Positions 2,309 through 38,000 of a DNA stretch of 64,000 bases are shown in pieces. The notes below the pieces were generated by a model. That model was given only the letters and a program-made list of their open reading frames with translations. It was not told where the DNA came from and ran no database searches. Both the position numbers and the translations under genes were made by a program. How positions within the stretch are numbered: the first letter of the stretch is position 1; each line of letters begins with the position of its first letter. Source of the DNA: Nemertoderma westbladi (lineage: Eukaryota > Animalia > Xenacoelomorpha); the NCBI GenBank assembly GCA_032718475.1, contig JAUCBJ010007860.1, positions 70,901-134,900 of the forward strand, written 5' to 3'.

Positions 2309-2454
2309 TCCAACCTTAAATGTATCCCTAATCTCCCACTTAGCTTCCCCAACGCACATTTGTAATAAAACTGAGTAATTCTGAAACAATTTGCTCCAAA
2401 TTATTGATTAATTTTATTCAAAATATAAAATAATATATTAATTTCAAAGAAAAT

Positions 2455-8906: not shown

Positions 8907-9447
8907 TGTGACCGTAGCCCAGCCATCCCGGCCATAAGAACCATTATATGGGTAGGGGCTTCAATTTCCAATATTCCCTCATCTCTCTTTCCCCATTTAA
9001 CTACCCACAATACCAATAGTTCTACCATTTCGGCCGCTTCACATATTACAGCATTGCCACCGGCCCTTACAGTAGGTGTAGCGTAGCCATGGTATTACTG
9101 TGTCATGATTGGGTGCTATTTATAGGTGTATATCATACCGCGCTCTGTGAGTGGCTGTTGTCTCCCATTCGCTAACGGTTCTACCGCCAAAACCTATAAG
9201 GCAGGGCGTTTCTCAACCTCTGCATTATTCCTTCTGCAGTGTACCTGACAGCGTGCCATTGCTTCTACCGGAGTTTCTGCCTTTTCAGACATTCAACATC
9301 AGTCACTCACAGACCGGCCCATAAAACTCACTTATGCATAACAACATCATTCTAAGATCTATTCAACTTTATTATCATGGGTTCGGGAAGGGCGGGAGCT
9401 ATGCGTTATTAGCGGCTCACAGGTTCATCAGCCAGCAGTGGGGAATA
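8907..9447 (+). repeat. 5' LTR of element 1 (TGTGACC...GGGGAATA)
   Basis: About 3 differences from 19764-20304 seen by eye. Confidence 0.95.
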
Positions 9448-9761
9448 AAAGTAGAAGCATTGTCCGGATAGGGCTGCTAAAAACTGCTTCTTCAACATCT
9501 CTAGGCACCCAGCTAGGTAAAAGTAAAAGGAGCAATCAACGACAGAACTATAAGTGCGTACCGGTCCGGTCACCGGTACTTACGGTAAAAAAAACGTTGT
9601 CGTTGTAGTAGGGTAGGCCTACAAACTGTTGCCTAGCCCTACGGCAGTACGCGGTCAGCAATTACAACAGCTTACAGCCAGCATGCCGGTCACCGGTGCG
9701 GTACCCTGCCCAACGCCTCCGCGCTAAGTACCTACGCTAGCTACGCTGTCCCGCAGCGATA

Positions 9762-12700
9762 ATGAGTACCGGTATCCCAGGAGAAACCCGGCGGGGCACA
9801 GCCAGTACGGTAGGCCCCGAACATTCATCCCACTTAGACGGGACTCCAACCGGCTCAGCAGACAGCCAGTTCGAGGGATGGTCAGACTCATCCCACGCGG
9901 ATCAACCCGGCTCCCAGGGGGCCATTGGAGGAGACCCGCAACCCGAGGTATGTTCTGACTCGGCGGTTTTACCGGAGTCAGTCAATGTACCTGATACCAA
10001 CCAAACATCCACGGTTCCAGGGCGCGTCGGTTCAGCGGTGAACTCGCGCACTGGACCGGTACTGCCAACTACAACAGGGCAACACCCAGTTCGGCCGAGG
10101 ACACCGAGCCCTGATGGGGGGAGCCCGCAGCATTCCGATTCAGACGACAGACGTGCTCCTGCGGGTGCCACCGCGGGGGCAGCGACGGTCGAGGACGCGG
10201 TCGTTCGATTGCAGCCGCGGGGAGCACGGAGCGATACACGAACTGGATCACCCGTTAAACCCGCCCGCGCCCGACGCCTAACGCGATCTACTATCGAGAA
10301 GGGGACCCTTCCTTCTAGGGATACAGGTGAGGTCGAGAAACTGGCGCAGAAATACAGACGCGCTAGGGACCGTATGGAGGATGGGGTCAAGACGGGTACG
10401 TTAAACTTCAACATTGACGAGGCCGTCGAGCAGGTAAACTTGTACATAGAGCACCTCAATAAATATCAGCAGGAGGTGGCAAGTGACCAAATAACGGACC
10501 ATATAACCAACTTTCTTACTGTACTGTATATTACGCATAAACTGGTAGGTATATACAGGGTTGGTAAGGTTGTAGTAGGTGAAGCCGCGACAGCTGTCGC
10601 CAAAAATTGGGATAGTGTACCACTGGGGGGAGAGATGAGGGAGGCGGAAGCAGAGCTCCTACCCAGTGATTCAGTTTCCCAGGTTGAGTCCAATCGGGGG
10701 ACTTTTATTTCGAGCCAAGTTCGCTCAAACTACATGTCGGTAGCTTCATCTAGGGGGGTAAGGGAGGAAGAACTACATGCCCAGTTCCTTATAGAACAAC
10801 GGGAACTGGAGGGTGAACTCCTAGAACAGGAGTTAGAGAAGGCTAGAAGGGTTAGGGCCCACAGGTTAGCGAAAAATAGGAAACAACAATTAGAGGCCCG
10901 ACAGCAAAAACGGTTAGTTAGTCTACGAGCAGCCTCTGAGAATGGTAGTTCAGTGTCCCGCCCTACCCAGGTTAGTCAAAGTGTCTCAGTGCCGTGCGGT
11001 CTGGCGCAGGTTGCCACAGCCCGCAAGCAAACAAATAATCGGGTTGAATTAAATAAACCCATAGAATTTAATAATTTAAATCTATTAAATAAACAAACCC
11101 AACTGGTTGACATAGACCAGACAGCAGGCCGTCGGCCGACATACCTTGTACAGCAGCAAGCCGTTCAGACATCGGCCAGGTTACCCGCAACACAGGGGTT
11201 AGTACAGGGAGTCTCTGAAGGAGACAGTATAAGGCTGATGAGCCGAGATACTGATAATTGTATTAATTTAAATGGAAATTTAAATAACAATTTAACACCA
11301 AATATTGATTTATTGCAATATAATGCAAATTCTAATAAAAACGCAAATATAATTGCACCAATAATAATACAAAGTAATGTGGAGGCACCAGTCCTGTCTA
11401 ATAACATAGACAGTGACTCACACCAACCCACACATAACACAGACGACATTGCAGTGCCGCCAAGCGGCAGTAGGTTGTACTGTGGTAATCAAATCGCTTC
11501 ACGCGAAGAGTCGGATCGGGAGGAGCGATTGCGAGACTCGGGAGATCGCACGTCGGTTCGAGTCAGTAGCAAAGTGGAGGAAGTCTACTACGAAGGATGT
11601 CCGGGGGCAAGAACTGGCCAACTTACGCAATCTGGCGAGTCTGAGCGGGCGACGAGGGCTCAGGAGGATCGATCTTCGGATGAACTCGTCGATCCGTTAT
11701 GTAGGCTAGGCCAGCCAGCTACTGTAGGCTATCAGTCAGTAGACCAGCAAGAACAAGCTACAGTAGTGCCGGACATAGATAAACAAACAACCCTAAACCC
11801 CAATGCGAGTGATTATAGACCGCCGAGAGTTCCAGAAGGGGGTCGACTTAATTTATCGGACGTTCGACATGCAGACTCCACTGCGAATGTACCGGTACCG
11901 CGAGTACCCCTATGGAGGCCTAGGGATGATAATGTGTATTACAATAGTAATATAAGAGAATATTTACCAGTAACAGCAAGCCCTTCATACAACCCAACTT
12001 CATCAGGGACATACACCCAAAGGGGGTCTAATGAAACTATTCATAGCCCCGTAGGTCTACATTATGATACTTTACCTAGGCTATCTTACCCCAGTAGGGA
12101 AACTGATAAACCTGCATATAATAATGTTGGGGGGGGGGGGGGGTAAGGACATGGCAAGGGGCCCAGGGGGCCTAGGAATGTATAGACCAAATATTGGTGA
12201 AGGGTCTTCCCATAGGGATGGTGTCACATCAGGACCTGCCAGTGGCTCTATTGGACAGACTACTTCACCACCAACAATACCAGAACATGTCAGCAGCACA
12301 GACCCTACAGGGGGAATGAGTGCAGTGGTGGATGCACTCAGGGTGCGTTTAGAATTGCCTCCCATCAAACCCTTTACATTTGATGGGACAAAGCCTGAAG
12401 AGTATGTACAATTCAGGAGCATGTTCAACGAGGAAGTCATGTCTAGGGGTCTAACTACAACTCGATGTCTAACTCATCTTCAGTCCTATGTAGAGGGAGA
12501 AGCTAGCGACATTGTTAGGCCATTTCTGGGCATGGAAGGAGGCTTCGCAGAGGCGTGGGCAGCCCTAGATAGTGAATATGGGCATCCTGCACGTATTATT
12601 CGAAACACCATACGTACCTTAACTGCAAATACATCCTTGCAAAAGCCTAAAGAATTAAAGGCCTTTGCTGCAAAGGTCAAAAAGGCTCTTATTGTGCTGC

Positions 12701-15700
12701 GCACATTGGGGCGACCAGCCGAGCTTAGCTCCACATCCAATATGACATCCATAGTGGAAACCTTACCAGTATGGATGCGCAGCCTATGGCGCAAGAAGGC
12801 ATATGTCCTACGCGAGGAAAAGGACAGGGAACCAGATTTTGCAGACCTGTCCACCTTCCTTACCTTCCAGGCAGAGATTATGATAGACCCCATATATGGG
12901 GAAGATAACTTCAACATTCCTAAAACTGGAGGAAAATCTAAAGAACTTCCCGCAACCACAAATAGAGACAAAATGAATAGCCCTGCTTATCCGCTGCCAC
13001 GCAAAAATGCCACAGGTGTTTTTCATCTGGCAGAAAATGAAAGGTCCAGTAGGGATCCCGTGTCAAGATCGAAGTCACCCTCGGTGCCAGCAAAAAGGCA
13101 CCAACCACCAGTGGCACCTCCGGAGGGCACTTCTCGAAATTCGACATATAAACAATCGGAGCGGTTTACTCCATTTACACCTTACTGGGACATAGGAACC
13201 TTAGGTTACAGCGACGAGGTGGACTGCCAGATCCATTTCAGAAACAAAGGTCACCCTACTAGAACTTGCAGGGTGTGGCAAGCACAAAGCCAACAGGACA
13301 AGTGGAATTACCACAAGCATCATGGTACATGCAAGCATTGTGTGACCACAGGCCACTTTTCAACGAACTGTCCCTATGCGCCTGCAAAGTCTGGGAAATC
13401 TGCTGAATCCGGGGCTACAGGCGTGATAAACACTTTATCTCTCCAGGATCGATATTATGGAGAGACAACGTATCTTAAGATACTTCCTGTTAGAGTGACA
13501 GGATCGAGGAAACGGTCACTGACAACCCTAGCACTAGTCGATAACAGTGCTGGAATCGACATCCAAGGTGAAGTCGTTCGGAAACAGTTGCATATTGCAA
13601 CACAGCCAGAGACCATGCATATAAGCACTATTGCATTAAAGAACCAGGAGATAAACATGCCGGTTGGGGAATGTACAGTTAGTTCTATTATGCCAGGGCC
13701 TGAGTTCTCAATTAAGTGCCCAGCAGTACGTGTGATAGACGAGGTAAACGTTCCCGCCGAAAGAGCAACAACGGAGGAGATAGCCCAGTACTCATACCTG
13801 GACGGCATCGACTTCTCTCTTCCGCCATTGGATCTTCCATATGTCACCATGGCGCTGGGGATGTGCTGTCTCCCGGTACATGCAGAGCTGGAGATAGTTC
13901 AGGGTCCGGGTAGAAATCAGCCCCAGGCTGTACGAACACCCCTGGGTTGGGTATTACTTGGCAAGGTGGCTAAGGTACCGTCTATATCAAACCCGACACG
14001 GGCTGTTACTGCTAACCACATCATTAAATCAGTAAAACCGGGCCCAGCTAGACCAATCACATCCCATGAACTCACTTATACCCCAACTGACACAGCTGGG
14101 ATCTCAAGTGGCACTACGGTGGCACAAGACCTAGCAACCCTCTTCAACCTGGATAGCGAAGGGTTGTATGAACCGACGCTTGGCCAATCCCAGGAGGACG
14201 TTAGAGCAACCAAGGCACTAACAAATTCAACCATCTTTCGAGATGGCCACTACACAGCAAGAATGCTGTGGAAAGACCCGAATGGGCAGTTACCTAACAA
14301 TGAATCCATGGCAGTAGAGCGCCTACGCAAATTCAAGGTAACGCTCAACCGAGATGAGCGAAAGAAACAGTTTGTTCATCGAACCATTCAGAAGTATCTA
14401 GATCGAGGGTGGGCAGTCCAGCTAGCGAACCAGGAACCCAATACCACTCGAACCTATTACTTACCCCTTCATGTCGCCGTAGATGTGAAGAAGAACAATA
14501 AACTCCGGTTGGTTAACGACGCTGCAGCCAAATACCATGGGAAGTCGCTGAACGACTATCTCCATGAGGGGCCCAACATTTATAATACAGGAGCAGATGT
14601 GCTCATGAGGTTCAGAGAGGGAACCAAGGCCTTCACATGCGATGTGGAGGCCATGTTCCACCAAGTTCGGGTCTATCAGGAGGACAGCGATAGCCTCCGA
14701 TTCCTCTGGCACGACAGCGATAACCCGAACGAGGTGCCAAAGAAATTCAAGATGTTGGTCCACATCTTTGGCGCCAAGTGTTCGCCGTTCATCGCCACCG
14801 ATAAACTACGGCAAACCACCTTTGACAAGAATGTTCTCATCGAATTCTCACAAGAGGTAATCCGCATGATTAGGGAGAACTTCTATGTAGACGATGGTCT
14901 GCAATCAGCCAACTCGACTGAACAAATCCTCAGCCTAGCGAAGGAAGCGGTAGAGATTCTACGGCGGGGAGGATTCTGGCTGAGGCAGTTCAAGTCGAAT
15001 TGTCACGAATTTGACGCCGAGATGGCCCCAGAGGATAAATCCACAGGCCTTCTCAAACAAAGTGAGAACATGGCTCCTATAAGCCTACAACCTCTAGCGG
15101 AGGGTAGGAGCCAGCCAGACGCAGCCTCAGGGGAAGTCAACCGGATATTGACCGAGGCTTCGGCAGAGCCTGAGGCCAGAGTGCTTGGGATTTCATGGGA
15201 TAGGATCAACGATAATCTCGTGTATATCTTCAACGAGACAGCTATGACAAAGCATACATTACGGAATTACCTATCATACATCGCGAGGATGTATGACCCC
15301 ATAGGGTTAGCATCACCTAACCTGGTGGTGGGAAGGCATATCCTTCGCGAAGCATATCTGGGGAAGTTCAGATGGGATGAGGAACTCCCAGAACAGCTCA
15401 AAATCAAGTGGATAGCTTGGCTCGAAGTTCTCAAGGACACTAGAAGGATAAGTATACCGCGACCGTACTTCTCGGATGGGAATATGTCCGAAGTGGTCCT
15501 GCATGCCTTCTCAGACGCATCGACTAAGGGATATGGGGCCGTGATATACGTGGTTCAAGGAGGAGAGAACAACCTGCAACCACGTCTGATCTTCAGTAAG
15601 GCCAGAACTGCTCCACTAAAACTAGTGACAATCCCGCGATTAGAGCTGATGGCTGCACTTCTGGCCACACGCGCAGCTCAACAAGTACGAAAAGCTCTTA

Positions 15701-17538
15701 AGAATGAGCGAGAAGTAGAGTATTGGACGGATTCCACTGTTGTGCTTCGCTACATTCAAAATGAATCACGAAGATTCAAAGTTTTCGTTGCTCATAGAGT
15801 GGACGAGATACGTGCCACGACCAACCTTAATAAGTGGCACTTCTGCCCGACAGACCAGAACCCAGCCGACCTAGTGTCCCGGGGAACCCTCAAAGTCCCA
15901 TCTAAGGAGTTGGAGACGCTCTGGCAGCATGGACCCTCTTTTCTCCGTGATGAGGGGAAGTGGCCAGAATTCCCGGACAAAGGTCAATCTCCCAAGTTAG
16001 ACCCAGAAGATCCAGAGGTCAAGATGGAGACCGTGTGCTTCGCTACTACTAGTACACTGATGACACCAACAGATAAACTCTTGAGTCATAGCTCTTCATG
16101 GTATAAGACTGTGAAGCTGGCAGCCTACTTCAGGGCCTGGTTCGTCTATATCAGACAAGGGCGTACTGGAGACAAGCCCATTATAGACTGGAAGGGAGCC
16201 AAGGTGGCTGTCATTAAGTATGTCCAGCGACTGGCATACACACAGGAGATAGGACGGTTAGCATCTGGGAAACCCATTCCGATGGATAGCCTAATCAAAT
16301 CGTTGTCACCAACACTAAACCAGGAAGGAGTCCTGGTCATGGACTCACGAGTACGACGGGCAGGATGTCAGATAATTCCAAGCAAGCCCGTAATACTACC
16401 GCGGCAGAGCCCAGTGACGCAGCAGATCATCAACGATAGTCACCAGCGGGTGATGCATGGGGGTACGGACGCAACTCTCGCTTACGTGAGACGCACGTAC
16501 TGGATTCCAGCGGTGCGCCGATCAATCAAACAGACTATAAACTCTTGTTCTACCTGCCGTTTAGTGCGGAAAGAACGAGTAACCCAAGTGATGGCGCCGC
16601 TTCCACCCGAACGAACAATAGAGTATGAACCACCAGTTGCCTATACAGGAACTGATATGTTCGGGCCGATAGTGGTAAAGGTTTATCGACAGCAGCGGAA
16701 ATCGTACGGCATCATTTTCGTTTGCTACAAAACCCGAGCCATCGCCTTGGAACTTGCAGTCGACGCCTTGGCCAGCGCTTTCATCAACGCCCTTCGACGC
16801 TTCATCAATCGATGTGGAAAGATCAAGCGCATGGCTTCCGATAATGGGGGAAATTTCATTGGTGCAGAGGCGGAGCTCAAAGAAGCCAGGTGTACCTTCA
16901 ATGCCAAGGAAGTGGCTCTCGCAATGCGCCGCGAAGGTGTGGACTGGGTACACACTACGCCCTATGCACCACACACCGCCGGAGTTTGGGAACGTCTCAT
17001 TGGAAGTTTCAAACGCCTGATGCTGGCACTACTCAGAGGGCACATCGTCACGGAGGACGTGCTCCGCACTGTCTTTGCAGAGGGCGAACAAATTATGAAC
17101 AGTAGACCACTCTGCGCGCTCAATGACGATCCAATGTCACTCGAGGTTCTCACTCCCAACCATCTACTGTTGCGACGACCAGCTCAGATGATGCGACGGG
17201 GGGAGTGGGACCCTAATGAACTCTATTCACGCAAGTCCTGGCGGGTGGTACAAGCGCTCGCGGACGAGTATCAACGTCGGTGGGTACAAGAATACATACC
17301 CACTCTCCACAAGCGACGAAAGTGGAGGACGGAGCAGAGGGACCTCAAACCGGGCGACCTCATACTGGTTACCGATGATACCCTACTCAAGAAAGACTGG
17401 TGCATGGCCAGGATCGTGCGCTGCTACCCAGGCGCAGACGGCTGAGTGCGTTCCGTCGAGGTCAGCCTAGGCAGCGGAGCTAAGCGCACCTACAAGCGAC
17501 CAATAGGCAACTGCTGCCTATTGGAATGCGCGCCCTAA
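9762..17538 (+). pseudogene. BEL/Pao gag-PR-RT-RNaseH-IN polyprotein, disrupted by a +1 shift in a G15 run (12129-12143) and an in-frame TGA at 17443
   Basis: Knuckle CKHCVTTGHFSTNC, protease LVDNSA, RT FYVDD, RNase H HAFSDAS/TIPRLEL/NPADLVSRG, integrase HHCC and SDNGGNF; frame continues past the TGA as VRSVEV..KRPIGNCCLLE. Confidence 0.92.
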
Positions 17539-17642
17539 TTAAAGACGGGGCAAGCCGTCTGGGGGGAGGATGGGTGGCAAAAACCAAAATCCTCTCAACT
17601 TCGCATCGACAGCAGATATCGACAACTGGTGCGAAGGATGAT

Positions 17643-18066
17643 ATCCACCAGTGGATTATCATAAACTCAATGTCTACTCCGTAGACTTTAACAAACTCTC
17701 CTTTATGTCTATTCAATAGACTTAATAAACTCAACTTTATGTCCTCTCTATGGACAGCTTAATGTGCCTATTTAAAGGACAACATAGGTCTACTCCGTAG
17801 ATTGTGTACTTAGGTCCACTCCATGGACAGCTTTAGCTTTAGATCTATTCCATAGATCGCTTACTTACATCCACTCCGTGGATAGCTTTAGGTCTATTCT
17901 GTAGACCACTTACTTATGTCCACTTAATGGACAACCTTATGTCTACTCCGTAGACGATGTAGCTAGGTCTGCTTTATAGGCTGCTAGTACTATAATGTCC
18001 ACTCCGGGACAGCTCAACTATGTCTATTCCATAGACAGCTAATGTTACTAGGATTACTCCGTAGTC
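17643..18066 (+). repeat. Array of ~15 short stem-loops (consensus GTCTAC-TCC-GTAGAC) in the 3' region of element 1
   Basis: Repeated 15-17 nt hairpins with compensatory changes and variable linkers. Confidence 0.85.
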
Positions 18067-19763
18067 TTCAGTAACTAAAAACTGACTGGGTCTCTAGGAC
18101 GCGTGGTAAACCCTGTAAAGGGCAAACCCACCACTGGAGGCACGGCTGTCAGTGTGCACTTGAATATTCCACCGCAGGGATATGCCTATCCGATTGTGCC
18201 GCAATCGGTGAGCGAGGCTACCCCTAAAAGCTATGTTTGTAGAGGGCTCCGCGCTCTACGGCATAGCGCCACCCTAATTAACAATGTCAGTTGTTAATTA
18301 GCCCTAACTCTTCTATTTCTAATTAATTATGTACCTAGCACTATGTATAATTATAGCAAACTACTATAGTGTAATATAGGTCTGTGCCTCTTACTTATAG
18401 GCACATTACGCGCAACGTATGTAGGCTATTACTAGGATAGCATTCTTCTTAGGCTAAGTGAAACCTATATTAGCACCACCAACCACCATTATTATTCATT
18501 GTGACAAGGAATTGGATTAATATTGCGCCACGCTATTTAGCATCTGAGTCTCATCAAGACACTGCCTTGTCACATACAAACCATAGCTAGCACAATCTGA
18601 GTTATCGCGAGTTAAGCCTTGTTGGCTTAGATTATAGCTATGGTTCCCAATGCCAATCAACTAAAGGATATGACACGCGGGTTCTACTTTCTACGCGTAT
18701 CTGGTTGAAGATTATCCCACCGCAATGTCCAAAATGTATGTTATAAAGTGTGAAACCGTGTTTACGTGACAACTTATGTAATTACCGTTCTAGAACGTGA
18801 AGGGTCGGCTATCAGTGTTATATAGCTTAGAGCGCTCGACCTAAAGAGAAAGATATGCCCTATTAAATTCAAAATTGGTGCATAGTTAAATTTAGTCATA
18901 CCATCCACCAATAGTTTATTGTAAATTAATAAAGTGCTCCATGTTCTTAAAATTTTCTTACTTTATTAAACCTAATACGGTAGGGGCGAATTTGATGGAC
19001 ATGAGACCACTGACAACCCATTTTAACAACGGGATCATTCTAAGGCGGCAAACCACCATGTTGGCTCCGTCAACATGGGTCATAGTTAGCGACTTAGCAG
19101 TTCCGCTGCTTGGCGCTAATACTGGGGATGTACATACAGTGAAGTATGTACATTTCTCTGTGTGGGCTAAAAAGCGCATTTAGTTCTCACAGGCAGTCTG
19201 GGGTACATGAATTCACGCCTGTTCATGTACCAAGGAGCGACGATCCGTCGTTTAGCTCTCAGACACGCTAGTGCTTGCCAAAGAGCGGTAAGTTGCTTGA
19301 TGTGTCTCCTCTGGCGAAGATCAAGAGACACTGACTCAGCAAGGTAAGGTCATAGGTATCGGCTCCGTCGTAGTACCTGTTCTTGCCTGCTCCACAGCTG
19401 GCAAAAATGGTTAGTGTAACCTAGGGTGTACTGCTCCGCAGTTACACCCGCGCGCCCAGCTGCAGTTTCGTTACCTGGCAATCGAGGTAAAGTTAGCGCC
19501 TCTAGCACCACAGGTAAGGAAACAAGAATGTAATCGCCTAGTCCCCGACGAAGCGAGAACATGTACCCATCTGCCCCTTGGGACTACAGTAGGGATTCTC
19601 CCAAAGTCTAGTCAGTGTTAACCAAGGGTAAGTACTATCAGCAGTATGTCCAAGGGAGGGAATAGTCCATTCAACTGCAAATGTCAACCAGCAGGCTAAG
19701 TCTTTTGGGTATAAGGAAATTTGCGAGGTTGTTCCGCAACCTCTCAAATTCCTTAGGGGGGAG

Positions 19764-20304
19764 TGTGACCGTAGCCCAGCCATCCCGGCCATAAGAACCA
19801 TTATATGGGTAGGGGCTTCAATTTCCAATATTCCCTCATCTCTCTTTCCCCATTTAACTACCCACAATACCAATAGTTCTACCATTTCGGCCGCTTCACC
19901 TATTACAGCATTGCCACCGGCCCTTACAGTAGGTGTAGCGTAGCCATGGTATTACTGTGTCATGATTGGGTGCTATTTATAGGTGTATATCATACCGCGC
20001 TCTGTGAGTGGCTGTTGTCTCCCATTCGCTAACGGTTCTACCGCCAAAACCTATAAGGCAGGGCGTTTCTCAACCTCTGCATTATTCCTTCTGCAGTGTA
20101 CCTGACAGCGTGCCATTGCTTCTACCGGAGTTTCTGCCTTTTCAGACATTCAACATCAGTCATTCACAGACCGGCCCATAAAACTCACTTATGCATAACA
20201 ACATCATTCTAAGATCTATTCAACTTTATTATCATGGGTTCGGGAAGGGCGGGAGCTACGCGTTATTAGCGGCTCACAGGTTCATCAGCCAGCAGTGGGG
20301 AATA
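19764..20304 (+). repeat. 3' LTR of element 1
   Basis: Direct repeat of 8907-9447, preceded by the PPT. Confidence 0.95.
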
Positions 20305-22856
20305 AATTCTATATAGAATCATTTTGTTGCATTTTATTGCAGCTACCACAAGCAGACTGATCCCCACGCTAGTTTGTTGGTTCAACGAGGTCTCTCTTCT
20401 TGTGGAGAGGTTTTAGTTAACTATAACTTTTCCCTTTCTGCAAAAAAGCACTCCCAACCCCCACTATGGATTACAATTGTAATGCGGAGGTCCGGCCACT
20501 ACAGGCCAGTGGAATTACTGGACACAAATCGGCCTCACAGGCGTCAGTTATTTCCTGACCGTCTCACCCCCGGCTGGTGGAGAGGGATTCTGGAGTTGGA
20601 GGCTACTCTCATGTTCCACCCCGACCAACCAAACCTTTATTGAAACTGTGGCAAGTTACTAGAATAGCCACAGTTAATACTCTAACACTCGGGTCCCTAA
20701 TGCGACAAGGCGAGCTGACTGCCCTGGCAGATAAGGTGTCCCTTAGCGCAGTGTGTATTCAATAGCACCGAAAACGGTCTGGACCGACTGATTAGATTCT
20801 GATTAAGGACATGAGGGGCGGTTGGCGACTCGCCCTCGCATCAGAAGATGAAAGTGAAAATGGTGGAATTGGTCTATTGATGAATCCAACTGCACATGCA
20901 GCATTGGACAAAGTAGACAAAATTTCCAACCGCACCATCCGCCGCCATTTCTTATGTTCTGGAAAACTTGTTAAGAAGTTTCCTAAGGTGGTTCTGATCG
21001 TGTGCTACTCTGCAACTAGTGTTGCCCCTGTAGAGGAGGTGGAAAATTTCTACCAGAATCTACAAGCAGCTACTGATGGAATGGATCAGCATTCATTCTT
21101 AACTTTCCTGGGCGACTTTAATGCAAGTCTACATCAATCATCCACATCGCCCTGGGTCTATACCGATAGTGAAAACCGAAATTCCGTCCATAGTCAGGAT
21201 TTCATCTCTGGAAATGGACTGCTTTCTGCTGGAACTCAGTTCAAGAAGCCTACTGGAAAGCTTTGGACTCACACTGGACCCAGTGTCCACAAGTCCCAGA
21301 TAGACCACATTCTGTTTCGTAGGAAATACAGGAGCTCTGTACAAGACTGTAGTGCATTTACACTTCGACCCTACTCCAGTGATCACCGCCTTATTGTGAT
21401 CAAGGAAAGATGTGGTCTCCGCGCTAGCATAATTACGAAATCTGACATCCCACGGCATGACTGGTCCTCTCTGTTCCAACAGCCCAGAATGAGATCCAGC
21501 TTCACACTAACGCTGAGCAACAGCTACGAGGTTCTCACCTCTGAGGCAACAGATCACTGCGAGTGCTATACTGCCTTCACAGAAGCAGTTAAGTTAGCAG
21601 TTGCAGAAACAGTTTCTGTATACCCTCGAAACAGGAAAAAAGGCCTCCTGGACTGACCACAGAATTCGAAAGTGCCGAAATGACCTCTCTAAGGCGCAGA
21701 ATGTCTCCCGCTAGCTCCGGCACACGAGGACAGACAAGGATGCAGTTAAGATTGCATGTAGGACCCTTAATAGACACAGACAGTACTCTGATAATCTGAA
21801 AGAGCTTATTACAAAGTAGGTTGATGCCATTAACAATACTCATAATAACAGGCAATCAGCCCAGGCATGGCAATCAATAAACCTGCTCACTGGGAGGAAA
21901 ATTCAACCAACCACCAAGGTTAACTGCTGAATCTCCAGCTGAAAGCCTCAAACAACCTAACAACTCATGGATTTTTTCCTGGAATCTCGTTAATCTCGAT
22001 TGCTGCAACGCTATACAACATAATTCTATAATCATATTCCATAATTATTCATTAATTCCATAATTAAATCGCATCAGGGATCCTGTTGAGAGACTGCTAC
22101 GTGGAAATCAGAATGGGTTCCGATAAGGTCGTGGGACCATGGAGCCCATTTTGGCACTTAGAATGATAATTGAAGAGTTATCAATAAAGAAGGACAGACA
22201 ACGGGCTATTATCTTTGTTGACTTCTTTAAAGCCTTCGACTCTGTCTCCTGACCACGGATGTTGAGCATACTGGCAGCATATGGGTTCCTGAGGAAATTA
22301 TTGTAGCTATCCGATCACTGTATGATGGATCCACCACGTTTGTATCTACTCCTGATGGTGATACAGATCCATTCTAATGGGGAGTCCTTCAGAGTGACAC
22401 ACTTGCATCATTCTCATTCGTAATTGTGGTTGATTATGTTAGTACGCATGTCCTTAGACCATGTTAATAATGATGGGGTGATTGTAACATCCCCTACTGG
22501 TACAAAAAGTAGAGGAAATCCAGCAAAGTACCTTACTGATCTAGACTTTGCTGATGACTTAGGGGTACAGTCAGAATCACTAGCGGGAGCCCAAAGGCTT
22601 ATCTGCTCATTGGAGCAGGATGCTTCTAGTGTTGCTCTTTTTGTAAACTCCAAGAAGACCAAACTCATGACAGTGAACATAGACAGCCCTCAAGAAATGT
22701 CTTCACCTTGCTTGAGCACGTGGACAACTACTGCTACTTGGGATCATGGATCCGAATGTCAGGTGAAGACCTTCGGATAAGCAAGGGGAAGGCATGGGCA
22801 GGGTTAAATAATCTGTCCAGGATTTGGAAGTCCAATCGAATAATACGGAACCTTAA

Positions 22857-24280
22857 CCCTATTAGTACCGGGCTATAAAATGTTGTACAAATACCGGGGG
22901 AAGGTCATATTGACCCCCCCCCCCCCCCCGAACAGGTCCGAACAGATCCGACCGAACAAAAATAACTTCGAAAAAATGTACTGGGGTGGTTATATTGCAG
23001 CACCAAAATTACAAGTAGTGCACAATTTTCACAAAATTTGAAAGTTACATTTTTCGGCTAATTGTTTTTCAATATAGGTTTTCTGGGGCGCAAAATACAT
23101 TGGATAATATTTAAAAATGATATGATTACTATAAATGGCTGTCCAGTCCTCTCTGCGTAGGAAAAAAATGAAAAAAACATGTAACCAGCACTTTTCAGTT
23201 AGAACACGAAATTTTTAATTCACTTATGCGATGCTATAAATTCCCATTTTCAGGTTTTCTAGCGCGCTGATTCTAATGGAATACATTTCTAATATGCCAG
23301 ATCATTGCTACTTGTATTTTTCGGCATAATTTGGCAAATATTTTGTGCTAGCACCAAATTTCGTACCCATCAACAAAAAGTACAAGTTTGCGATGTCCAC
23401 TGCTGTTTTTATTGATTCCATCGGATTCAGGACCCTCATAAACCCGTATAACGCAAGAAACAAGATAATACTATCTACTGATCAATTTGCTTATCTGACA
23501 AACCCGTATAACGCAAGAAACAAGGTGACACAATCAATTGATATATTTGATGATTTTCAAAAGTTGGTGCTAGCACCACATTTTGCACCCACTTCCGAAA
23601 AATACAAGTTTGAGATGTCTAGTTCGATAATTATATATTCCATTGAATTCAGAACAGCCATAAACCTCTAAAACGCAAGAAATAAATTGTCACAAGCAAT
23701 TTTATCTATTGAATGGATTTTCAAAATTTCGTGCTAGCACCAAAATTTGCACACAGCACCGAAAAATACAAGTTTTATACGCTTGGTGCAACTCGTATAT
23801 ATTTCATCGAAACCAGAACCCCAAAATACCCCAATTGCGTAAAAAACAAGTTTGTAACAATCAATTTACAAAATTGACATATTTCAAAATTTGGTGCTGG
23901 CACCAAAATTTGGCACCCGCCGAAAAAAAACAAGTTTGAAATTTCTAAATCAATTTAAATGAATTCCATCCAATTGCTATCACCAAAAAACCGGTGTAAA
24001 TCAAAAATAGAGATGTTACAATTCATATTTATTTAATGAAATGTAATTTTCAAAAAACGTCTAAAAAAAGTGCCAAAAGTAGGGTTAAAAAATGTAGCTA
24101 TAACTCGAAAACTATCCAATATTTTTGAAAACGGTTTTCACTACTAGGAAGACAATAGATTTTAAGGAAAAGTCATAAATTTTCATATTCCCAACTGCGT
24201 TTGTTTCAGAATTATAATAAAAAAACCACGGGGGGGGGCGTCATATTGACCCCCCCCCCCCCCCCCCGGATTTAATAGGG
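22857..24280. mobile_element. Non-autonomous piggyBac-type DNA transposon (MITE)
   Basis: TTAA|CCCTATTAGTACCGGG ... CCCGGATTTAATAGGG|TTAA; GTCATATTGAC flanked by G/C runs near both ends; removing it restores LINE frame NLKVRLF; internal degenerate GTGCTAGCACCA repeats. Confidence 0.85.
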
Positions 24281-24299
24281 TTAAGGTTCGATTATTTAT

Positions 24300-24600
24300 T
24301 AAATAAATGAATTGTAGTTGAGCTGTTAATGCAACTTTAATGAATGATATTGTAATAAGTTGTTCAGAAATTGAAAAAAATGAGAGAGTCAGCGGGGGTT
24401 GAACCAGCGCTATACGTACGTTTCGGCCTATAAGGCCTCTTCAGTAGTGCTAATAGTTTCAGCCACTCTCCCCTGACATTCACCTTTCTATTTATTCCAC
24501 TTATACTGAACAGGCAATCTTTAGTTGCATATCCTATCTCTAACAGCCCCCAGTTACTCGCTTTCTCATTTTTTCCATTTCTGAACAACTTATTACAATA
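24300..24600 (-). mobile_element. ~300-bp retroposed insertion (Penelope pLTR/retrozyme-like) with 12-bp TSD and internal inverted arms
   Basis: TCGATTATTTAT (24288-99) and TCGATTAATTAT (24601-12); absent from the homologous LINE at ~30135; arms 24347-24386 and 24563-24602. Confidence 0.75.
24406..24451 (-). ncRNA. Minimal type I hammerhead ribozyme
   Basis: Minus strand: AGCACUA-CUGAAGA-GGCC uuaua GGCC-GAAA-CGUACG-UA^UAGCGCU; all core nucleotides present, GUA cleavage triplet. Confidence 0.85.
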
Positions 24601-25094
24601 TCGATTAATTATGGCAGTAGTATTACCGGTACACTTATATATGGGAGTCCCTGTTGGGTTCTAATTGCAGAGGATACCAAATCTCTGGATGGCACTTTCA
24701 TAAGAATGCTGCGCCGGGTTTATTGTGTCAACTACAATGAACACATCTCCATTGACATTGAAGGTGTTCAATTAGTCTTCTCCCCTAGCTTGACACTTGA
24801 ATGGAACCGCCTCCGTTTGCAGGACATTGCTTTCGCCGTGAGGACCAGCCAGTGCATAATCTTGTACTTTGGCAGCCTCATGGAGTGAATAAGCATGGTG
24901 GACAGCCCATGACTTTCTTGAGACGCATCTTAAAGGACACTGGCCTTGAAGATGCGGATGATCTAGCAAATGTCATGGGTGATCGGGAGTTGTGGCGGCG
25001 CAATTTTGTCGACAAGCCGGCACAGCATTCTTATATATGTAATACATACATAATGCAGCTGCAATGCAGCATGCCGATCGTAGTAGTAGTAGTC

Positions 25095-26608: not shown

Positions 26609-26889
26609 GTGACAACAGCCATGGAACAAAATGCGCAGGTGAGATCGCCATGGTAGCGAACAATGGAATGTGTGGGGTCGGCGTCGCCTATAATTGTAAA
26701 GTCGGTGGAATCCGAATGTTAGATGGACCGGTAACAGATGAGATAGAGGCTACCGCTCTCCACTTCAACTACTCACATATTGACATATATTCGGCTTGTT
26801 GGGGTCCAAGTGATGATGGAAAGACGATGGCGAAACCAAAGTTATTGGCAGCTCAAGCCCTGGAATATGGCACTAAAAATGGAAGAAAC
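26609..26889 (+). CDS. Proprotein convertase exon 3 (catalytic His)
   Basis: CAG acceptor at 26606-08 in matching phase; [27 protein letters not shown]; donor GTTAGT at 26890. Confidence 0.93.
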
Positions 26890-27620: not shown

Positions 27621-27668
27621 ATGTAATGTATTTTCTGATGACACGGACCCCCCCCCCCCCCCCCCAAA

Positions 27669-28432
27669 TTTTTCTACAAATCTTTATAATATTGCTTGAA
27701 ATTTGAAACACAACTAGTTCCACCCACCGTGGTTGACCCCATGAAGCTGTAATTTTCGATTTTGCCTTTAAATTCTTTTTATAAGCGTTTTAAAATAAGT
27801 GTCTTTTGCGAAATCGCAATACCGTATCGTGGGCATTCTTCACATTAGTCGTAATTGTTTTATATCATTAAAAAGCTTGTGTTGCAAGGATTCCAAATAT
27901 GTAACAATACCTGAATTTCGTTGAGAAACAGCTGAGATATAGGCGTTCAAAGATTGTAAGAAGTATTGTTCGCTGAAAGCCATTTACTCTATTTAATAAA
28001 TACACGATGTTCTGGAACATTTTGTTTAAGTATGAATAGCTACGCAATAGATATATTGAATAGGAATTGCGCGGTTGCCAACCAACTCATAAAATAAATA
28101 AGACATTCTAGAATTTCGTGTATTTATCAAATAGAATGAATAGCCTACCCCGAATGATTGTTCTTGCAATCTTTAAACGCCTATTATTCAGCTGTTTCTC
28201 AATGAAATTCAGATATTTTTACATATTTCGAATCCTTGCAACGCAAGCTTTCCAATATTATGAAAAATTACGACTAATGTGAAGAATGGCCACGATGCGC
28301 AGTGTGGGCGCTTATAAAAAAAATTTTAAAGTAAAAATCGAAAAAATTCCGACTTCATGGGGTCATCGATGGTGAGTGGAACTAGTTGTGTTTCAAATTT
28401 CAAGCAATATGATAATGATTTGTAGAAAAATC
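27669..28432. mobile_element. Foldback/MITE with ~370-bp imperfect inverted arms
   Basis: TTTTTCTACAAATC..ATTGCTTGAAATTTGAAACACAACTAGTTCCAC mirrored at 28377-28431; arms pair inward to about 28050/28090. Confidence 0.8.
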
Positions 28433-28809
28433 TGGACTCATGAACATCGTGAACATGTACATACAAGCAAGTTTCGAGCGCCCGTATCTCAAAATTTAAC
28501 TTTTCCTCAACGAAATCCAGATATTGTTACAGATTAGGAATCCTTGCAGCGTTACTTATTCAAATATACCAATAAACCACTACAAGGTTGAAAAATAATC
28601 GACTGGAGACACCTTGATAGTTGAGACCATTGCTCTTACGCAACGAGGACCATCCAATCATGATATTGTGCTTTGGCTGCCGCGTGGTGAGAGTAAGCAT
28701 GGAGGGCAGAGAAACCATGACATGCTTGTTTAGTTACGAATATTAAAGTACACTGACCTTGATAATCTCGCGACATAGGGAATCCTTAGCATATCAGCAT
28801 CTAACTTGA

Positions 28810-30617
28810 TGCCATCAATGATGCTGATGACAGCAGCAATCATCCCAGGCATGGAAATCGATCAACTTGCTTACTGGGCGGAAAAGCCAACCAACCACCA
28901 AGTTTAAGGCTGAATCACCAGCCGCTCGCCTCAATGGTTGGAAGGCCCACTTTGAAAAGCTCCTCAATAATGACAGGGTATTGCCTGATAACATTATAGA
29001 AGTAAAAGTCCCAGATATTCCCATTGTTGATATCTTCTTTGCAGAAGTGAAGGCTGCTTCAAAGAGCATTAAGAGCAATCGTGCCAGTGGAGTAGATGGT
29101 GTTCCCCCTGAGGTCTTTAAAATACCTGAGTGTTTAAAGCTCATCTATCCCATCATAGTAGACATGTACCGAACAACAAGAGTCCCACAAGAAATGAAAA
29201 CAAATAAGTTGGTGCCAGTTCCCAAGAAGGGCAACCTAACACTCTATGGTTCTTTCCGGGGAATCTCATTGATCTCGATTGCTGCAAAGCTATACAATAG
29301 AATTATATTAAATCGCATCAGGGATCCCATTGAGAGACTGCTCCGTGGAAATCAGAATGGGTTCCGTAAAGGTCGTGGGACCATGGAGCCCATTTTGGCA
29401 CTTAGAAGGATAATTGAAGAGTTATCAAAAAAGAAAGACAGGCATCTGGCTGTTATCTTTGTTGACTTCTTCAAGGTCTTTGATTCAGTCTCTCGCTCAC
29501 GTATGTTCAGCATACTTTCATTATATGGGATTCCTGATGAAATTATTGCAGCAATCAGATCAGTATACGATGGTTCAACAACATTTGTGTCTACTGTTGA
29601 CGGTGACACAGAACCATTTGAAGTGTTATGGGGCGTCCTCCAGGGAGACATATTTGCGCCATTCTTGTTCATAATTGTGGTTGACTATGTTCTACGCATG
29701 TCCTTAGATCATCATAATGATGATGGGGTGATCATATCTCCACCTACTGGCTCCAGAAGTCGAGGAAATCCTGCCAAATACCTATCTGATCTAGACTTTG
29801 CTGATGACTTAGGAGTACTCTCTAAATCACTAGAGGGAGCCCAACGGCTCCTCAGCTCATTAGAACATGCTTCTTCTAGTGTTGGTCTTTTTATTAACTC
29901 CAGAAAGACCAAAATTTTGACAGTTAACTTTGAAAGTCCTCAGCAAGTCTCTGATCGGATGAGCATAAGCTCAAAGATGGTATGCTTGAGCATGTGGACG
30001 ACTTCTGTTACCTGGGATGATGGCTCCGGAAGTTAGGTGAGGACCTTCGAATGCGTAAGGGAAAGGCATGGGCAGCCTTGAATAGGCTTTCCAGGATTTG
30101 GAAGTCACCGATAATTAATCGGAAACTTAAGGTCCGATTATTTAGGGCAGCAGTAGTTCCAGTACTCCTCTAGGGGAGTCCATGCTGGGCTCTAACTGCT
30201 GAGGACACCAAATCTCTGGATGGCACATTCACAAGAATGCTACACCGGGTTCATTGTGTCAAGTACAATGCACACATCTCCAACCAGACACTATATAACA
30301 TTGGAGGTGTCTCATTGGTTCCCCCAAGCTTGACACTAGAACAAAATCGCCTCATTGCAGTACATTGCTTTCGCCGTGAGGACCAGCCAGTGCATAATCT
30401 GGTACTTTGGCAGCCTCATGGAGTGAATAGAATAAGCATGGTGGACAGACCATGACTTTCTTGAGACGCATCTTAAAGGACACTTGCCTTGAAGATGCGG
30501 ATGATCTAGCAAATGTCATGGGTGATAGGGAGTTGTGGCGGCGCAATTTTGTCGACAAGCCGGAACAGCATTCTTAAAAATGCAGCTGCAATGCAGCATG
30601 CCGATCCTAATAGTAGT
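28810..30617 (+). mobile_element. 5'-truncated RTE-like LINE (RT), TSD ATCTAACTTGA
   Basis: RT ORF 28867-30036 (FRGISL, VDFFKVFDSV, GVLQGD, LDFADD) with downstream frameshifts; TSD at 28799-28809 and 30618-30628; TAG-repeat tail. Confidence 0.9.
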
Positions 30618-30974
30618 ATCTAACTTGAACATTTAAAAATGATGAGAAAATTTAATTTGATAATTGTAGATAATTTCGGCCAGATAGGGCTTCCAAAAGT
30701 ATAATCAAAGTTTTTAAACTTTAACTCACAATGTCCATCCAATTAACCGGTATTAAAATTGCATGGTAAGGTTTAATGACTGTAAAAAACCTTACCGGTA
30801 GGTGTGTTAGTACCAAAGTATGTATAAAACTAAAAATCAACAAAACCTAGACGTTGCATACAATCTGTGATCAGCTGACGGCAGCCAGCTGATCGGCAGG
30901 TTTCGCCCCGCAGTTGAAGGCATTCTCAGGAGGCCAAGTCAGGAAACGTAGAGAGAAATTCACAAAGTGATACG

Positions 30975-31242
30975 GATACCACATTTTTTGAAACCAGCAT
31001 GTTCATTTTCATAATATTTTTCGACCACTTTTTGTATTTTCATTTTCTATTTCTGATAATTGGAAAATATATAAAAAATATTAAAAAAGTGGGGAAATAT
31101 ATAAAAAATAATAAAAAAGTGGGGAAATATTATGAAATCATAAAACTGGTCGAAATTTATGAAGCTTATGAAATTACCTTTCATATAAATCAAAAATTGC
31201 AAAAAACGGTTGAGAAATGGCGGAGGAGTAGTATTTTTCGAT
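30975..31242 (+). repeat. AT-rich dispersed repeat, inverted copy of 33722-33737 + 52559-52815
   Basis: Near-identical reverse complement; both copies give the same spurious ORF in the track. Confidence 0.85.
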
Positions 31243-33737: not shown

Positions 33738-34995
33738 TGTTCGCGCTTTTGAAGACCTTTAGCAGTTTAACCTGCCAAAATTTATATGTCTTTTAGTTAA
33801 TTAAAACCACTTTAGCATATGACAATATTTTATGCTAATACGCAAAACATTAGCCGAAGGCAGCCCATGCGCGATCATTCACCCGATGGATCTACACCCG
33901 GGAGGCTGAATTCGGATGCTTAAATTGTATTATTGCAGTGTAAGGTTGCAGTGTATACCTACTGTATTATTCGATAGATCGTTAATAATTAATCTCTGAC
34001 ATATATTATTGGCTTTCGGGAAATATTAACAGTTCCTTTAGGACGTGGCGCTTTATCTATTTAAACAGAACTAAGACTTATACTAAAACGCAACGATACT
34101 GCTTATGATTAAAGTATAAAGCGTATTCTTTAGGAAATACTTTGTTACCAATCACAATCATACACACTATTCTGCCGACCGTCAGTATATTTGATCATAC
34201 ATAAAGAGAGCAGCAATTGACTCACGTAGGGTCTGCTAAATAACATTGGATTCAATACACACCACATTAATATAAATCGCAATTGTTATGTATAGCCGGT
34301 CTCTCTAACCTGTAGTGTTATCAAGAAAATTGGGAATTTGGGTGATTTATCCGTATTATCCAAAGAGCAATATTTCCATCAACAAATAGGTACAATTAAT
34401 AACTGACAGTAAATAACAGTACAAACAATATGATTAATGCAGTTAAATTAAGTAAGTATGTTAAGATGCGTTAAAATTCGATTGATTAATTAGATTCGAT
34501 TCGGTAACAGTTTATACTTTCGATAATTTAAGCAGTTTTACTAGAGTTCTTCCCAAAAGGCCGGTGTTTCTGGCTTAGACAGCAATAACAACAAAGTATC
34601 AAGTAAAAACAGTAAGACTGAACACTCTCCTTATGATCGGCTGAAAAGCTACACGTCGACAGGAAAAATCGCTCTGATTGGCTCAAGCCAAACAAAGAAC
34701 CATGCGTCCAATGGCTGTTTCCATGTCAGCAACCAGCTGTTAGATGTCGTAATATGAATCATCACGGCTAAGCTGTGAAAGGTAGTTGGTGCATTACAGG
34801 TTTTTTGCCTTACCATGTCCGCCAAAACACGTATATAGCAGAATGATTTTTATGTCCGTTAAAACACCTGTAAAGGTACCTTGCGGGCGAGGGGAATATA
34901 TATACAGTTAGAGAACCCTTTTAGAGTATTCCAGCGCCTGGGGGGAACTGGCCAGCAAAGGCAAACGTATCAGTTATCCCACAAAAGCTTTTACA
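33738..34995 (-). repeat. 3' LTR of element 2
   Basis: About 2 differences from 51301-52558 seen by eye. Confidence 0.96.
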
Positions 34996-35073
34996 CCGCT
35001 CCCAGAAAATGGGATTTAAGTCTATAAAATATACAAAATCACAGTTTCTAAAATATAAAAATACTCTAAACAG

Positions 35074-38000
35074 TTAGTCTTTCTTGCGCGGACGGCGTTT
35101 ACGCAGTTTTTTAAAGCTAGCAAGAGTCCTTTTCTCTTTGGGGCGAGCCACTTTACGAGGAGGGCTATAACTCCTGGGTGAAGGGTGCAATATGATTGCA
35201 TCAGAAGGTATGGGATTGCGATCGGTATATCCGCCGGTCGAAGTACCGGGTTGATTGACCTCAACGTCCGGGGAGAGGGGTCTAACGGCTTTGAGAGCTC
35301 GTTTCAAGACAGCCGCTCTTACGGGTCCTGTACGAGTGGTCTGCACGAGGGCCGTGGGTGGACCATAGGTAGTTAGAAACTTCCTTGGTTTAATGGTTCT
35401 TTCCAACTCGCGTTCGCGGGCTCGGTACTCGTAAGGCCGTCGATATACTTCTTGTAACTCAGGGTGTGAGTTGACGAATAAGTCTCCATAGGCAGGGTCT
35501 TGACGGATAAAGTTTATTAAGTTGTAAGAATGGATGTCACTCGGATTAATGCTCCTGAGGAATTTGCGTACATATTTGGTTGAAATACATTCTCCAACGC
35601 GCTTCAATAGTTCATAACTTGATAGGCGCGATTTTTGCTCGACGGAGGCAAACAAATATGGATGGAACGCATAAACTCCTTCGTAGGCGCGTCCAGGATA
35701 ATAGCGATGGCGTGAATCACAATGTAAATCAGCGTTCGCTTCCCAAGCTCTGATATAACGTAGTACAATCATCTCATCTACGCTCTCTAAATCATGGTTG
35801 AAGGGACAATCAAAGCTGGCGTGTCCTTTTAATTGACAATGATGGCATTGAGTCATAAATTTGGGGCAGACCCCAAAAATGTGCAAATTATTAAGCCGAC
35901 AATATGCACAATAGATTTCCATCGACGGTTGCTTGTGGAAATAGGAACAAAGATCGTTGGTGTCCATAGACGTAATATGGTCTCTCGATGCGCACAGCCG
36001 ACAACGTTGTCTAGAAACATAATTGGCATGGCGATAATCATACGCAGTAAGACACTGGGGACCTTGATACCATTCCAATATGTAGTCGCTATCGCTACTC
36101 CGAGACGTGGGGGGTTGAATCTCTTCAGATTCTAAACATATGGGTTCGTCTTCCCCTTGTATAGTTGAGGTAGGCATGGCCGTCTCCTCAAGTGGACCTA
36201 CCGTCTGAATTTCCACGACAGAATAACCGGTGGGGATCCGAGGTCTTTGAATAACCGAGGAGTGCAGGTTTATTATACAAATGTCTCTGAAAATAGCGAA
36301 TCCAGCGCTATCTAACTTCTCCGCAGCCGAGTCTCTTAAGCTGAGCTTGGTCAAAGCGCGGTCTTTGAATTGGCTATCCACGTTGCGAAACGGGGTTAAA
36401 AACCGTCGGAAACATTCAAAGCGGATGAATTTATTATGTTCATCTAGCTTAGCGAGTTTGGTCCCAAGGATTAATGGATGGGCGCGTATAGTACGACTGC
36501 ACACATCGGCTAGCCAACCGGAAAGTGCGGTGTTTTCGAAGATCGTGTAGATAGCTAAGGAGGGACGGAGTGGAACACTCATGAAGCTATACACGGCGCC
36601 AGGTGCGGTCAACGGTCCGTCAAAGTATAATCGAGAATAATGGTCTCCATATACTTGTTGATAATTGATGGGATTTCCGACCTTGAAATTCCACCCGTAT
36701 TCCTGAAAGGCGAGATGTCCGATGGAAGTTCGTTGCACCTTTGTAATGTTGCTAGACACATTAGCATACATGGTGCGAAAGACCTCGGCCTTCGGCCCAA
36801 GGAGCTATCAGCTGAGTATCCACGAAAGGATAGGGGATATTCTCCATATTCCGAAAGTCGTTTTGGAGATCTCCGTAAACAGCTGAGCCGATTTTAACGA
36901 TTCTTTCGTTGAATAACATCTCGAGAACGGGCTGGGGTAACATCGATCCATCGATACCCATGGCCGGTTTGCGTTCGGTGTCAATGACGTAACGCTGCGC
37001 GAGTTCGAATTGTCTATGTCGGAGATTCTTTTGCGTTTCGGTGAGAGTTTCGAAGGAATAATCGATCACGTCGGAACACGCTCGCGTAAACACGTGAGTG
37101 GAGCCAGCTAATCCGCGTATGTGTATCATGCGCGTAGTTCCTAATTCTCCGATTGGAACGCTACCTTCGTTATCATAAGTAACAACGCCATACATCTCAA
37201 TGATATTAAGAGTTTCATTCCACTCTTTGGTGGCGTTCTCGAGGGTCATCCCTACTGGATGCCACAAGGTGGCGCATTGATTAGCGTCAGGGAGATCACT
37301 ATACTTCATATATCGAGTGGTATACGTCTCCACATTTCCATATCTTTGGATTTTCTCCTCCTCGAATAATACGTCTAGATTTCAATGGACTAATCGAGTT
37401 TTAATAAATCCATCGAGGTTATAAGGAGGTTCTGTATCCTTCTCTATTCGAGAAACGTTGTATGGTTTTCGAAATGAGTTTGCCTTTACTAATTGATCCA
37501 GATGTTTTTGCAATTGTTCGAGTTCGACAATGTCTAGAGGATTTATTAGTGGTAGAAACTTTAAATCATGCGTCGGATCTTCTGGTTTTACCATATAATA
37601 TTGAGTCAGATTAACGTAATAAGGGTGATCTTTAATTCCATAAAAAGAGTTCTGTAAAGGTCTAGCGCGTATGTTGACATCGTGTACCATACGACGGACA
37701 AGATCCGCTCGATTGTCCGGAGGTTCAACGAGTATACCGTCAACTCGAGCGGCCTCGATTGGCGGACGCTGTAACATAGGAGCGTCAGCGATAAGATTTT
37801 GCGATCTTATGCTGATATCAACCGGTTGGGGTTGTATCTTTGCGAAAAGTTTGTCTCCGAAATGCGGAACCATCGAGGGATGACGGACGGTTTTAGAGTA
37901 GAGATCGGTTATGAGTATCTGAGTTTCGGGTTGGGCTAAAGCGGCTTCTTCTCTCTCATCCATTTCCGTATGTCTCTCCTCCATTTGATTCTCCTCCGCC

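Follow-up and report, generated by a model that had tools for sequence, protein, structure and literature searches.

The core of a type I hammerhead is complete on the minus strand of a 301-bp insert at 24300–24600 of the window, by which we mean the whole analysed stretch of 64,000 nucleotides, and the insert very probably represents a Penelope-like element (PLE)-type insertion of a real hammerhead element. We consider it moderately likely that the insert is a decayed copy of a separate, non-autonomous family, related in kind to retrozymes and to the Sm-alpha elements, which was moved by PLE enzymes. Retrozymes, PLE hammerheads and Pol III-linked Sm-alpha elements are already known, and the class of the insert is ordinary. 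The unusual part, as read from the letters, is that the hammerhead is enclosed by the A and B boxes of a promoter motif of the tRNA type. No description of such a layout was found in literature listings, which gave for most entries the opening lines of abstracts, and it may therefore have been published already.

Insertion footprint of the element

The insert sits within a broken LINE, which is matched by a second LINE copy at 28806–30618 (76–83% identity). Contigs from four public runs were aligned on 24150–24800 at 80% likeness. Three of the runs (X1–X3) come from the window's organism by label, X2 and X3 being one sample, and the fourth (X4) comes from another, related organism. The features of the insert and its surroundings are as follows.

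24288–24299, unstranded: left target-site duplication (TSD), 12 bp, AT-rich; 11/12 with the right copy, 10/12 with the empty site
24300–24344, minus strand: 45-nt 3' tail, at this end alone (PLE-type), with a small hairpin and an A/C-rich end; contigs of other loci diverge at 24301–24306
24345–24401, minus strand: 3' portion of the unit, which recurs as the inverted arm and contains the T7 run 24380–24374; loose contig ends at 24388 (X1, X2, X3)
24395–24405, minus strand: Pol III type 2 B box, 11/11 with GGTTCRAnYCY (consensus of PMC7279448)
24403–24454, minus strand: type I hammerhead ribozyme, with helix I 24451–24445/24412–24406 (extendable by G-U pairs), core 24444–24413 and predicted cut 24413/24412
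24454–24465, minus strand: Pol III type 2 A box, decayed here (TGGCTGAAACTA) and TGGCTGAGCTGG in other copies, from the X3 loose-end consensus and variant row 24457
24466–24545, minus strand: upstream part of the unit common to other copies, with 5' truncation near 24545, from contig pieces
24545–24600, plus strand: second copy of the 3' portion in inverted orientation, truncated at its 5' end and tailless, with a head-to-head joint to the main unit
24601–24612, unstranded: right TSD, 12 bp, matching the left copy
30134–30145, plus strand: empty site in the paralogous LINE (reference, outside the element), with a single copy of the site

Both the near-perfect 12-bp TSD and the empty site in the paralogous LINE, which a preliminary description of this DNA had reported, were recovered; the TSD has a GC content of 17%, and a further contig passes from 24299 directly into LINE sequence. 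In X1, X2 and X3 contigs of other loci, the likeness to the insert ends at 24301–24306 and is followed by unlike sequence, in agreement with the 3' end defined by the TSD. The inverted arms were also confirmed, but at a length of about 55 bp (47 matches, 5 mismatches and 5 gap columns) instead of the ~40 bp first given. They are asymmetric, since the right arm adjoins the right TSD and 45 nt separate the left arm from the left TSD. Read along the ribozyme strand, the insert consists of the inverted copy of the 3' part (24600–24545), the main unit (24545–24345) and the tail (24344–24300). Contig pieces ending at the truncation point span 24394–24545 (X1, X2), 24400–24545 (X3) and 24388–24543 (X1). 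Differences of about 10% in the arms, the TSD and the family mark the copy, which is partly decayed, as old. Pairing of the tail with 24547–24523 as an end-closing stem was considered and rejected, its likeness being no better than that of shuffled sequences (1119/2000).

Head-to-head joints were found elsewhere at other positions, including 24371|24531 (X2) and 24335|24559 (X3) among the 15 listed of 59 joints, and, with 36 letters between the two parts, 24419|24559 (X1) and 24340|24569 (X1, X2, X3) among the 12 listed of 41. Several of these joints are single contigs, mostly one per run, aligned at 80% likeness, and joints at 24388–24399|24547–24558 were excluded as expected from the arms alone. 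It is very improbable that the insert is a MITE with 55-bp terminal inverted repeats which happens to hold a hammerhead. The long inverted arms indeed dominate the fold and account for the folding z of −5.8 of the whole insert, but the left arm is set back from the TSD by 45 nt, the joints vary between copies and the TSD is 12 bp long and AT-rich. The asymmetric ends largely refute this origin, fixed terminal repeats abutting both TSDs having not been found at the insert, and it can be practically excluded because the arms are variable between copies.

The anatomy matches that of published PLE insertions, in line with the preliminary assignment of the insert to the circle that comprises PLEs as well as non-LTR retrozymes. 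PLE insertions are described as having at their 5' end an inverted copy that is truncated on its 5' side, inverted repeats on both sides of the unit and, at one end alone, a tail of 30–40 bp (PMC8557442). A PLE protein has been shown to cleave AT-rich DNA on both strands and to extend each of them, and reverse transcription begins at two internal sites, by which the tail is defined (PMC11167929). The insert likewise has an inverted 5'-truncated copy beside its 5' end, a one-sided tail and an AT-rich target, and it shares with EN+ Penelope-like insertions a hammerhead in the end repeat (PMC8557442, PMC11167929, PMC4209133). It differs from them, as far as they are described there, in its tail of 45 nt (30–40 in theirs), in its canonical ribozyme and in the lack of an RT/GIY-YIG frame in the window: none of the 118 frames scanned there was a GIY-YIG, and no RT/GIY-YIG frame joined to the end repeat was seen within it. 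The PLE insertion footprint of this copy, on an element with a canonical hammerhead, gives direct structural support to the idea that animal retrozymes ride on PLE enzymes.

The hammerhead and its family

On the minus strand, CUGAAGA at 24444–24438 supplies C3 to A9. It is followed by helix II at 24437–24425, which consists of GGCC/GGCC and one U-A pair, by GAAA at 24424–24421, by helix III at 24421–24414 (ACGUACGU), in which an A-U and a C-G pair close GUAC, and by A at 24413 as N17, with cleavage predicted between 24413 and 24412. Helix I joins 24451–24445 with 24412–24406 over seven positions, with a single A-C mismatch at 24448/24409. Every letter of the invariant core (C3 U4 G5 A6 N7 G8 A9 / G12 A13 A14 A15.1 / U16.1 H17) is present, and the type I descriptor gave one match in the window as compared with none in 200 dinucleotide shuffles. 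The complete minus-strand core, the 7-bp stem I with one mismatch and the tiny palindromic stem III of the preliminary description are thus borne out. A search with Rfam, in which overlapping clan matches were suppressed, returned the type III hammerhead model RF00008 at 24.8 bits, below its gathering score of 48.5 (E = 0.021 for 2 kb and 0.67 for the whole window).

Folding predictions gave the three-helix type I layout with helix I open. The predicted pair probabilities were 0.81–1.0 for helix II, 0.52–0.99 for helix I and 0.05 for helix III in the monomer, and in the predicted dimer helix III becomes an 8-bp duplex (−37.4 versus 2 × −12.0 kcal/mol). The ribozyme fold was absent from the lowest-energy fold of the whole insert. 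The sense unit alone, with a folding z of about −1, is not unusually structured.

The ribozyme had been called a minimal one, and here the preliminary description does not hold. Minimal PLE hammerheads have a helix II of 7–8 bp, a helix I of 4–5 bp and an additional nucleotide that separates position 9 from 10.1, whereas canonical metazoan type I motifs have a helix I of 6 bp, a helix II of 4 bp and a helix III of 1–2 bp with a palindromic loop (PMC4209133). The insert has a helix II of 4–5 bp, a helix I of at least 7 bp, no extra nucleotide and a helix III of 2 bp with a tetraloop, and by these letters its ribozyme is of the canonical invertebrate type I. Motifs of the canonical type from coral and mussel cleaved as monomers, at 0.8 and 0.1 per min, and axolotl motifs were cleaved better as dimers (PMC7229834). 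By analogy, the ribozyme of the insert may cut as a monomer; dependence on dimers is possible, but it need not be required because the coral and mussel motifs cut as monomers.

By definition, the unit of a non-LTR retrozyme is non-coding, measures 170–400 nt, has a GC content below 50% and a TSD longer than 4 bp, and contains a hammerhead of the canonical type I (PMC7229834); each of these features is found in the insert. Like the metazoan members of this group, it has a canonical type I hammerhead with a short palindromic helix III (PMC7229834; bioRxiv 10.64898/2026.07.22.740005), is non-coding with a GC content of 37%, has a TSD above 4 bp, falls in the 170–400 nt range and belongs to a high-copy set. 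Unlike them, it is single at its locus, where it forms a monomer with no tandem arrangement, and the tandem form was not seen in the organism of X1–X3. Dispersed monomers and cnidarian examples of metazoan retrozymes are both described (PMC7229834; bioRxiv 10.64898/2026.07.22.740005). It further differs from published retrozyme circles in that its unit is not strongly self-paired, and from retrozymes in general, which are said to seem promoterless (PMC7761336), in that its family has A and B boxes.

To the insert region aligned 3286, 3771 and 4444 contig records of X1–X3, respectively, and the ribozyme region reached a summed depth of 10^4–10^5 as compared with ~10–100 for single-locus contigs, a measure that shows a high copy level and is not used as a copy number. 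Judged by these alignments, the insert belongs to a high-copy non-coding family. At 24448, most of the depth (87, 92 and 94% in X1, X2 and X3) has a letter with which the helix I pair is re-formed, and no variant at the invariant core letters was present among the 40 listed of 67 variant rows in the X1–X3 contigs. Because of these two observations, the mismatch appears to be private to this copy and the family ribozyme to be intact. Hammerhead position 7 is U in 86, 86 and 88% of depth (X1, X2, X3), and loop II is variable, at 24432 in 98–99% and at 24431 in 41–56% of depth (X1–X3). C11.1 (24425) is U in 25–32% of depth, a one-sided change from G-C to G-U at a conserved pair. Two-sided compensatory changes were not found among the same 40 listed rows of 67, which do not amount to an alignment of whole copies. 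In the family, each strand of helix I and each strand of helix II is a self-complementary word, as is helix III.

In the ribozyme 3' half, the summed depth was 4–5 times that of the tail and 9–10 times that of the 5' half. At 24388–24427, four X1 contigs jump back from 24427 or 24417 to ~24389–24397 and form tandem units of ~40 bp, which hold just the ribozyme 3' half and the B box; they are possibly a minisatellite of half-hammerheads.

The summed depth drops steeply 5' of the ribozyme, as would result from 5' truncation. This is also what one would expect if the insert were a heavily 5'-truncated 3' stub (pseudo-LTR) of a protein-coding PLE, with the hammerhead and the boxes in its end repeat and no separate family. 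We regard such an origin as possible but unlikely. It would leave an identical insertion anatomy, and animal retrozymes are reported to derive from pLTRs (bioRxiv 10.64898/2026.07.22.740005). However, the hammerhead is canonical, and canonical type I motifs are mostly assigned to retrozymes (PMC4209133, PMC7761336); moreover, the 100 nt upstream are without coding signal. Also against a stub is a repeat unit of 341 nt in the related organism X4. There, a contig of 371 nt (depth 5.5, RNA by guess) carries 24453–24388 at its end with 5 differences and 24416–24388 again at its start. Its period of 341 nt suggests a tandem or circular unit, as seen in a single contig of another organism with 66 nt aligned.

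The family-specific pattern had no match in metagenomes, and the general hammerhead core pattern none in viral contigs. In metagenomes, the general pattern had 9 matches, 8 of which (L001–L008) share short core words alone, whereas the ninth, L009, has a 34-nt match. At 196–227 (minus strand), L009 holds a type I hammerhead with helix II and III words as in the insert and 7/8 pairs in helix I. About 160 nt upstream of this ribozyme lies a GIY-YIG frame, which is broken and gave a weak match (387–821, minus strand; E = 0.023). The Atlas neighbours of L009 were eukaryotic, with GIY-YIG as third match on 12% of members, and its flanks resembled the 3' part of the element no better than shuffled sequences did (437–1556/2000 in four scorings). 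It is likely that L009 is the 3' end of a eukaryotic PLE. It shows that the ribozyme design of the insert is also used downstream of an endonuclease of PLE-like kind and that coding PLEs can have a ribozyme of this type. Both the PLE link and the stub origin gain support from this. The core matches in L001–L008 contain the helix III word of the insert; L003 and L007 have a helix I of 4–5 bp by the core, and the others misfit type I.

For the separate retrozyme/Sm-alpha-like family that we favor, we propose that PLE enzymes copied the non-coding hammerhead unit into an AT-rich site of the old LINE. Since the long cDNA spans the cut site, it would have been copied either from a precursor that had not been cleaved or from a circle closed again by ligation. 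Against a separate family speak the monomeric state of the insert locus, the lack of a tandem array, a full-length unit or a partner PLE among the sequences seen from this organism, the weak structure of the sense unit, the lowest-energy fold of the insert without the ribozyme and the one-sided change at C11.1.

Promoter motif around the ribozyme

The consensus sequences of the Pol III type 2 boxes were taken from PMC10886601 and PMC7279448. The B-box-like sequence that had been noted just 3' of the ribozyme agrees with the consensus at all 11 positions (24405–24395) and is the sole match in the window, where 0.85 matches are expected by chance. In this copy, the first half of the A box alone is present at 24465–24454. 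The box of other copies is TGGCTGAGCTGG, as derived from the X3 contigs whose ends come loose at 24453 (19 records with an agreement of 0.79); it fits TRGYnnARB(n)GG, and row 24457 supports it in 91, 95 and 98% of depth (X1, X2, X3). The A-box pattern occurs 18 times on the two strands of the window, or ~0.006 per 40-nt slot. The A and B boxes of the family are 48 nt apart, as compared with a typical 30–40, and the whole ribozyme lies between them. By inspection, UGAGC of box A is pairable with GUUCA of box B (5/5) past a 4-nt bulge, which would lengthen helix I. With its broken A box, its helix I mismatch and its antisense position in a host intron, the copy at 24300–24600 is probably inert.

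A T6–7 run terminates Pol III transcription. Such a run (24380–24374), which is T7 here and T6 in the family, starts 14 nt past the B box; like the family's A box and the PLE-type nature of the arms and tail, it had escaped the preliminary description. For this reason Pol III, if active, would yield just a ~95-nt RNA, from the predicted start at about 24472 to the T run, without the tail needed for copying. This RNA, if made, would be cut in two by the ribozyme. The mobile RNA is probably not made by Pol III, and read-through is its more likely source. The word TATAAG, which precedes the predicted start by 30 nt, was considered and rejected, since it is altered in most other copies (rows 24503 and 24506).

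The boxes, the 12-bp TSD and an (ATTT)-like 3' end would also suit a tRNA-derived SINE that was transcribed by Pol III, moved by an APE-type LINE and inverted at its 5' end by twin priming, and a few contigs lose the match at 24467–24474, close to the predicted start. Nevertheless, we find this origin improbable. Other copies share the 73 nt that precede the predicted start, the T6–7 run is internal to the unit, the tail is unlike the (GTA)n end of the window's LINE, and no tRNA was found by ARAGORN or Rfam. In addition, the inverted arm repeats 3' sequence, and twin priming on one monomer is not known to duplicate 3' sequence.

Closer to the insert are the Schistosoma Sm-alpha and Sj-alpha elements, in which, too, a single short unit of high copy number holds both a tRNA-type Pol III promoter and a type I hammerhead, and cleavage parts promoter sequence from the start of the unit (PMC6765202, PMC2770079), as is predicted here. 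The family of the insert has A and B boxes with the spacing of type 2 promoters, as SINEs and Sm-alpha do. On the other hand, its unit does not begin at the predicted Pol III start and has a predicted internal terminator, and its promoter does not lie wholly upstream of the ribozyme. In the scheme of Sm-alpha given in a review (PMC6765202), the promoter precedes the ribozyme; in the insert, by contrast, the ribozyme is flanked by the two boxes, with a T6–7 run after box B.

Within the retrozyme/Sm-alpha-like reading, a family with a working Pol III promoter would be one in which the hammerhead replaces a tRNA-like anticodon arm and the paired boxes form an outer helix I. The cut would fall between the boxes, and only circles or tandems would keep the whole promoter. 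We put this forward as a distinctly tentative idea. If it applied, short products of Pol III, together with the tandem runs of ~40 bp found in other copies, could serve as partners in trans through the three palindromic helix strands. A family with boxes A and B around its ribozyme would provide a simple system for testing the role of Pol III in the transcription of retrozymes, which are described as apparently promoterless (PMC7761336).

Host intron and neighboring elements

The window consists of animal DNA, with an HD-domain gene, a long-intron proprotein convertase, BEL/Pao retrotransposons and remains of an APE-RT LINE. The host gene is the convertase, on the plus strand, and its closest named relatives were PC3-like proteins of the cnidarians Actinia, Sanderia and Thelohanellus, at an identity of just 43–50%; such relatives would point to a cnidarian as the likely host, though not firmly. 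Its exons at 7687–7929 and 26614–26889 lie on either side of the insert, whose ribozyme is on the minus strand; the antisense position in a host intron that had been described before is therefore correct. Since the host pre-mRNA contains the antisense strand of the ribozyme, it would escape cutting.

The same LINE holds another insertion of 1.4 kb at 22857–24280, a piggyBac-like non-autonomous element with a TTAA duplication and ends CCCT...AGGG, 3 bp off the TSD of the hammerhead element and with very high contig depth. The convertase intron of the insert also contains a young BEL/Pao element at 8907–20306, with 543-bp LTRs that are 99.4% identical, and in the next convertase intron an imperfect palindrome of ~770 bp (27664–28435) represents a fold-back element. 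Direct repeats of 1265 bp each, 99.7% identical, lie at 33738–35002 and 51301–52565. Between them, downstream of a BEL/Pao polyprotein at 40945–48435, long frames of 576, 206 and 653 aa without Pfam match were found at 35074–39343 (minus strand); the repeats, the polyprotein and the extra frames together look like one young 18.8-kb LTR element with additional genes. An intronless HD-domain frame of 479 aa at 2434–3873, which we take to be SAMHD1-like, is directly preceded by a tandem array of 74.5 copies of a 31-bp unit at 2–2309. Finally, a segment of 258 bp at 30975–31232 recurs in opposite orientation and with 100% identity at 52558–52815, where it adjoins the end of the LTR-like repeat.
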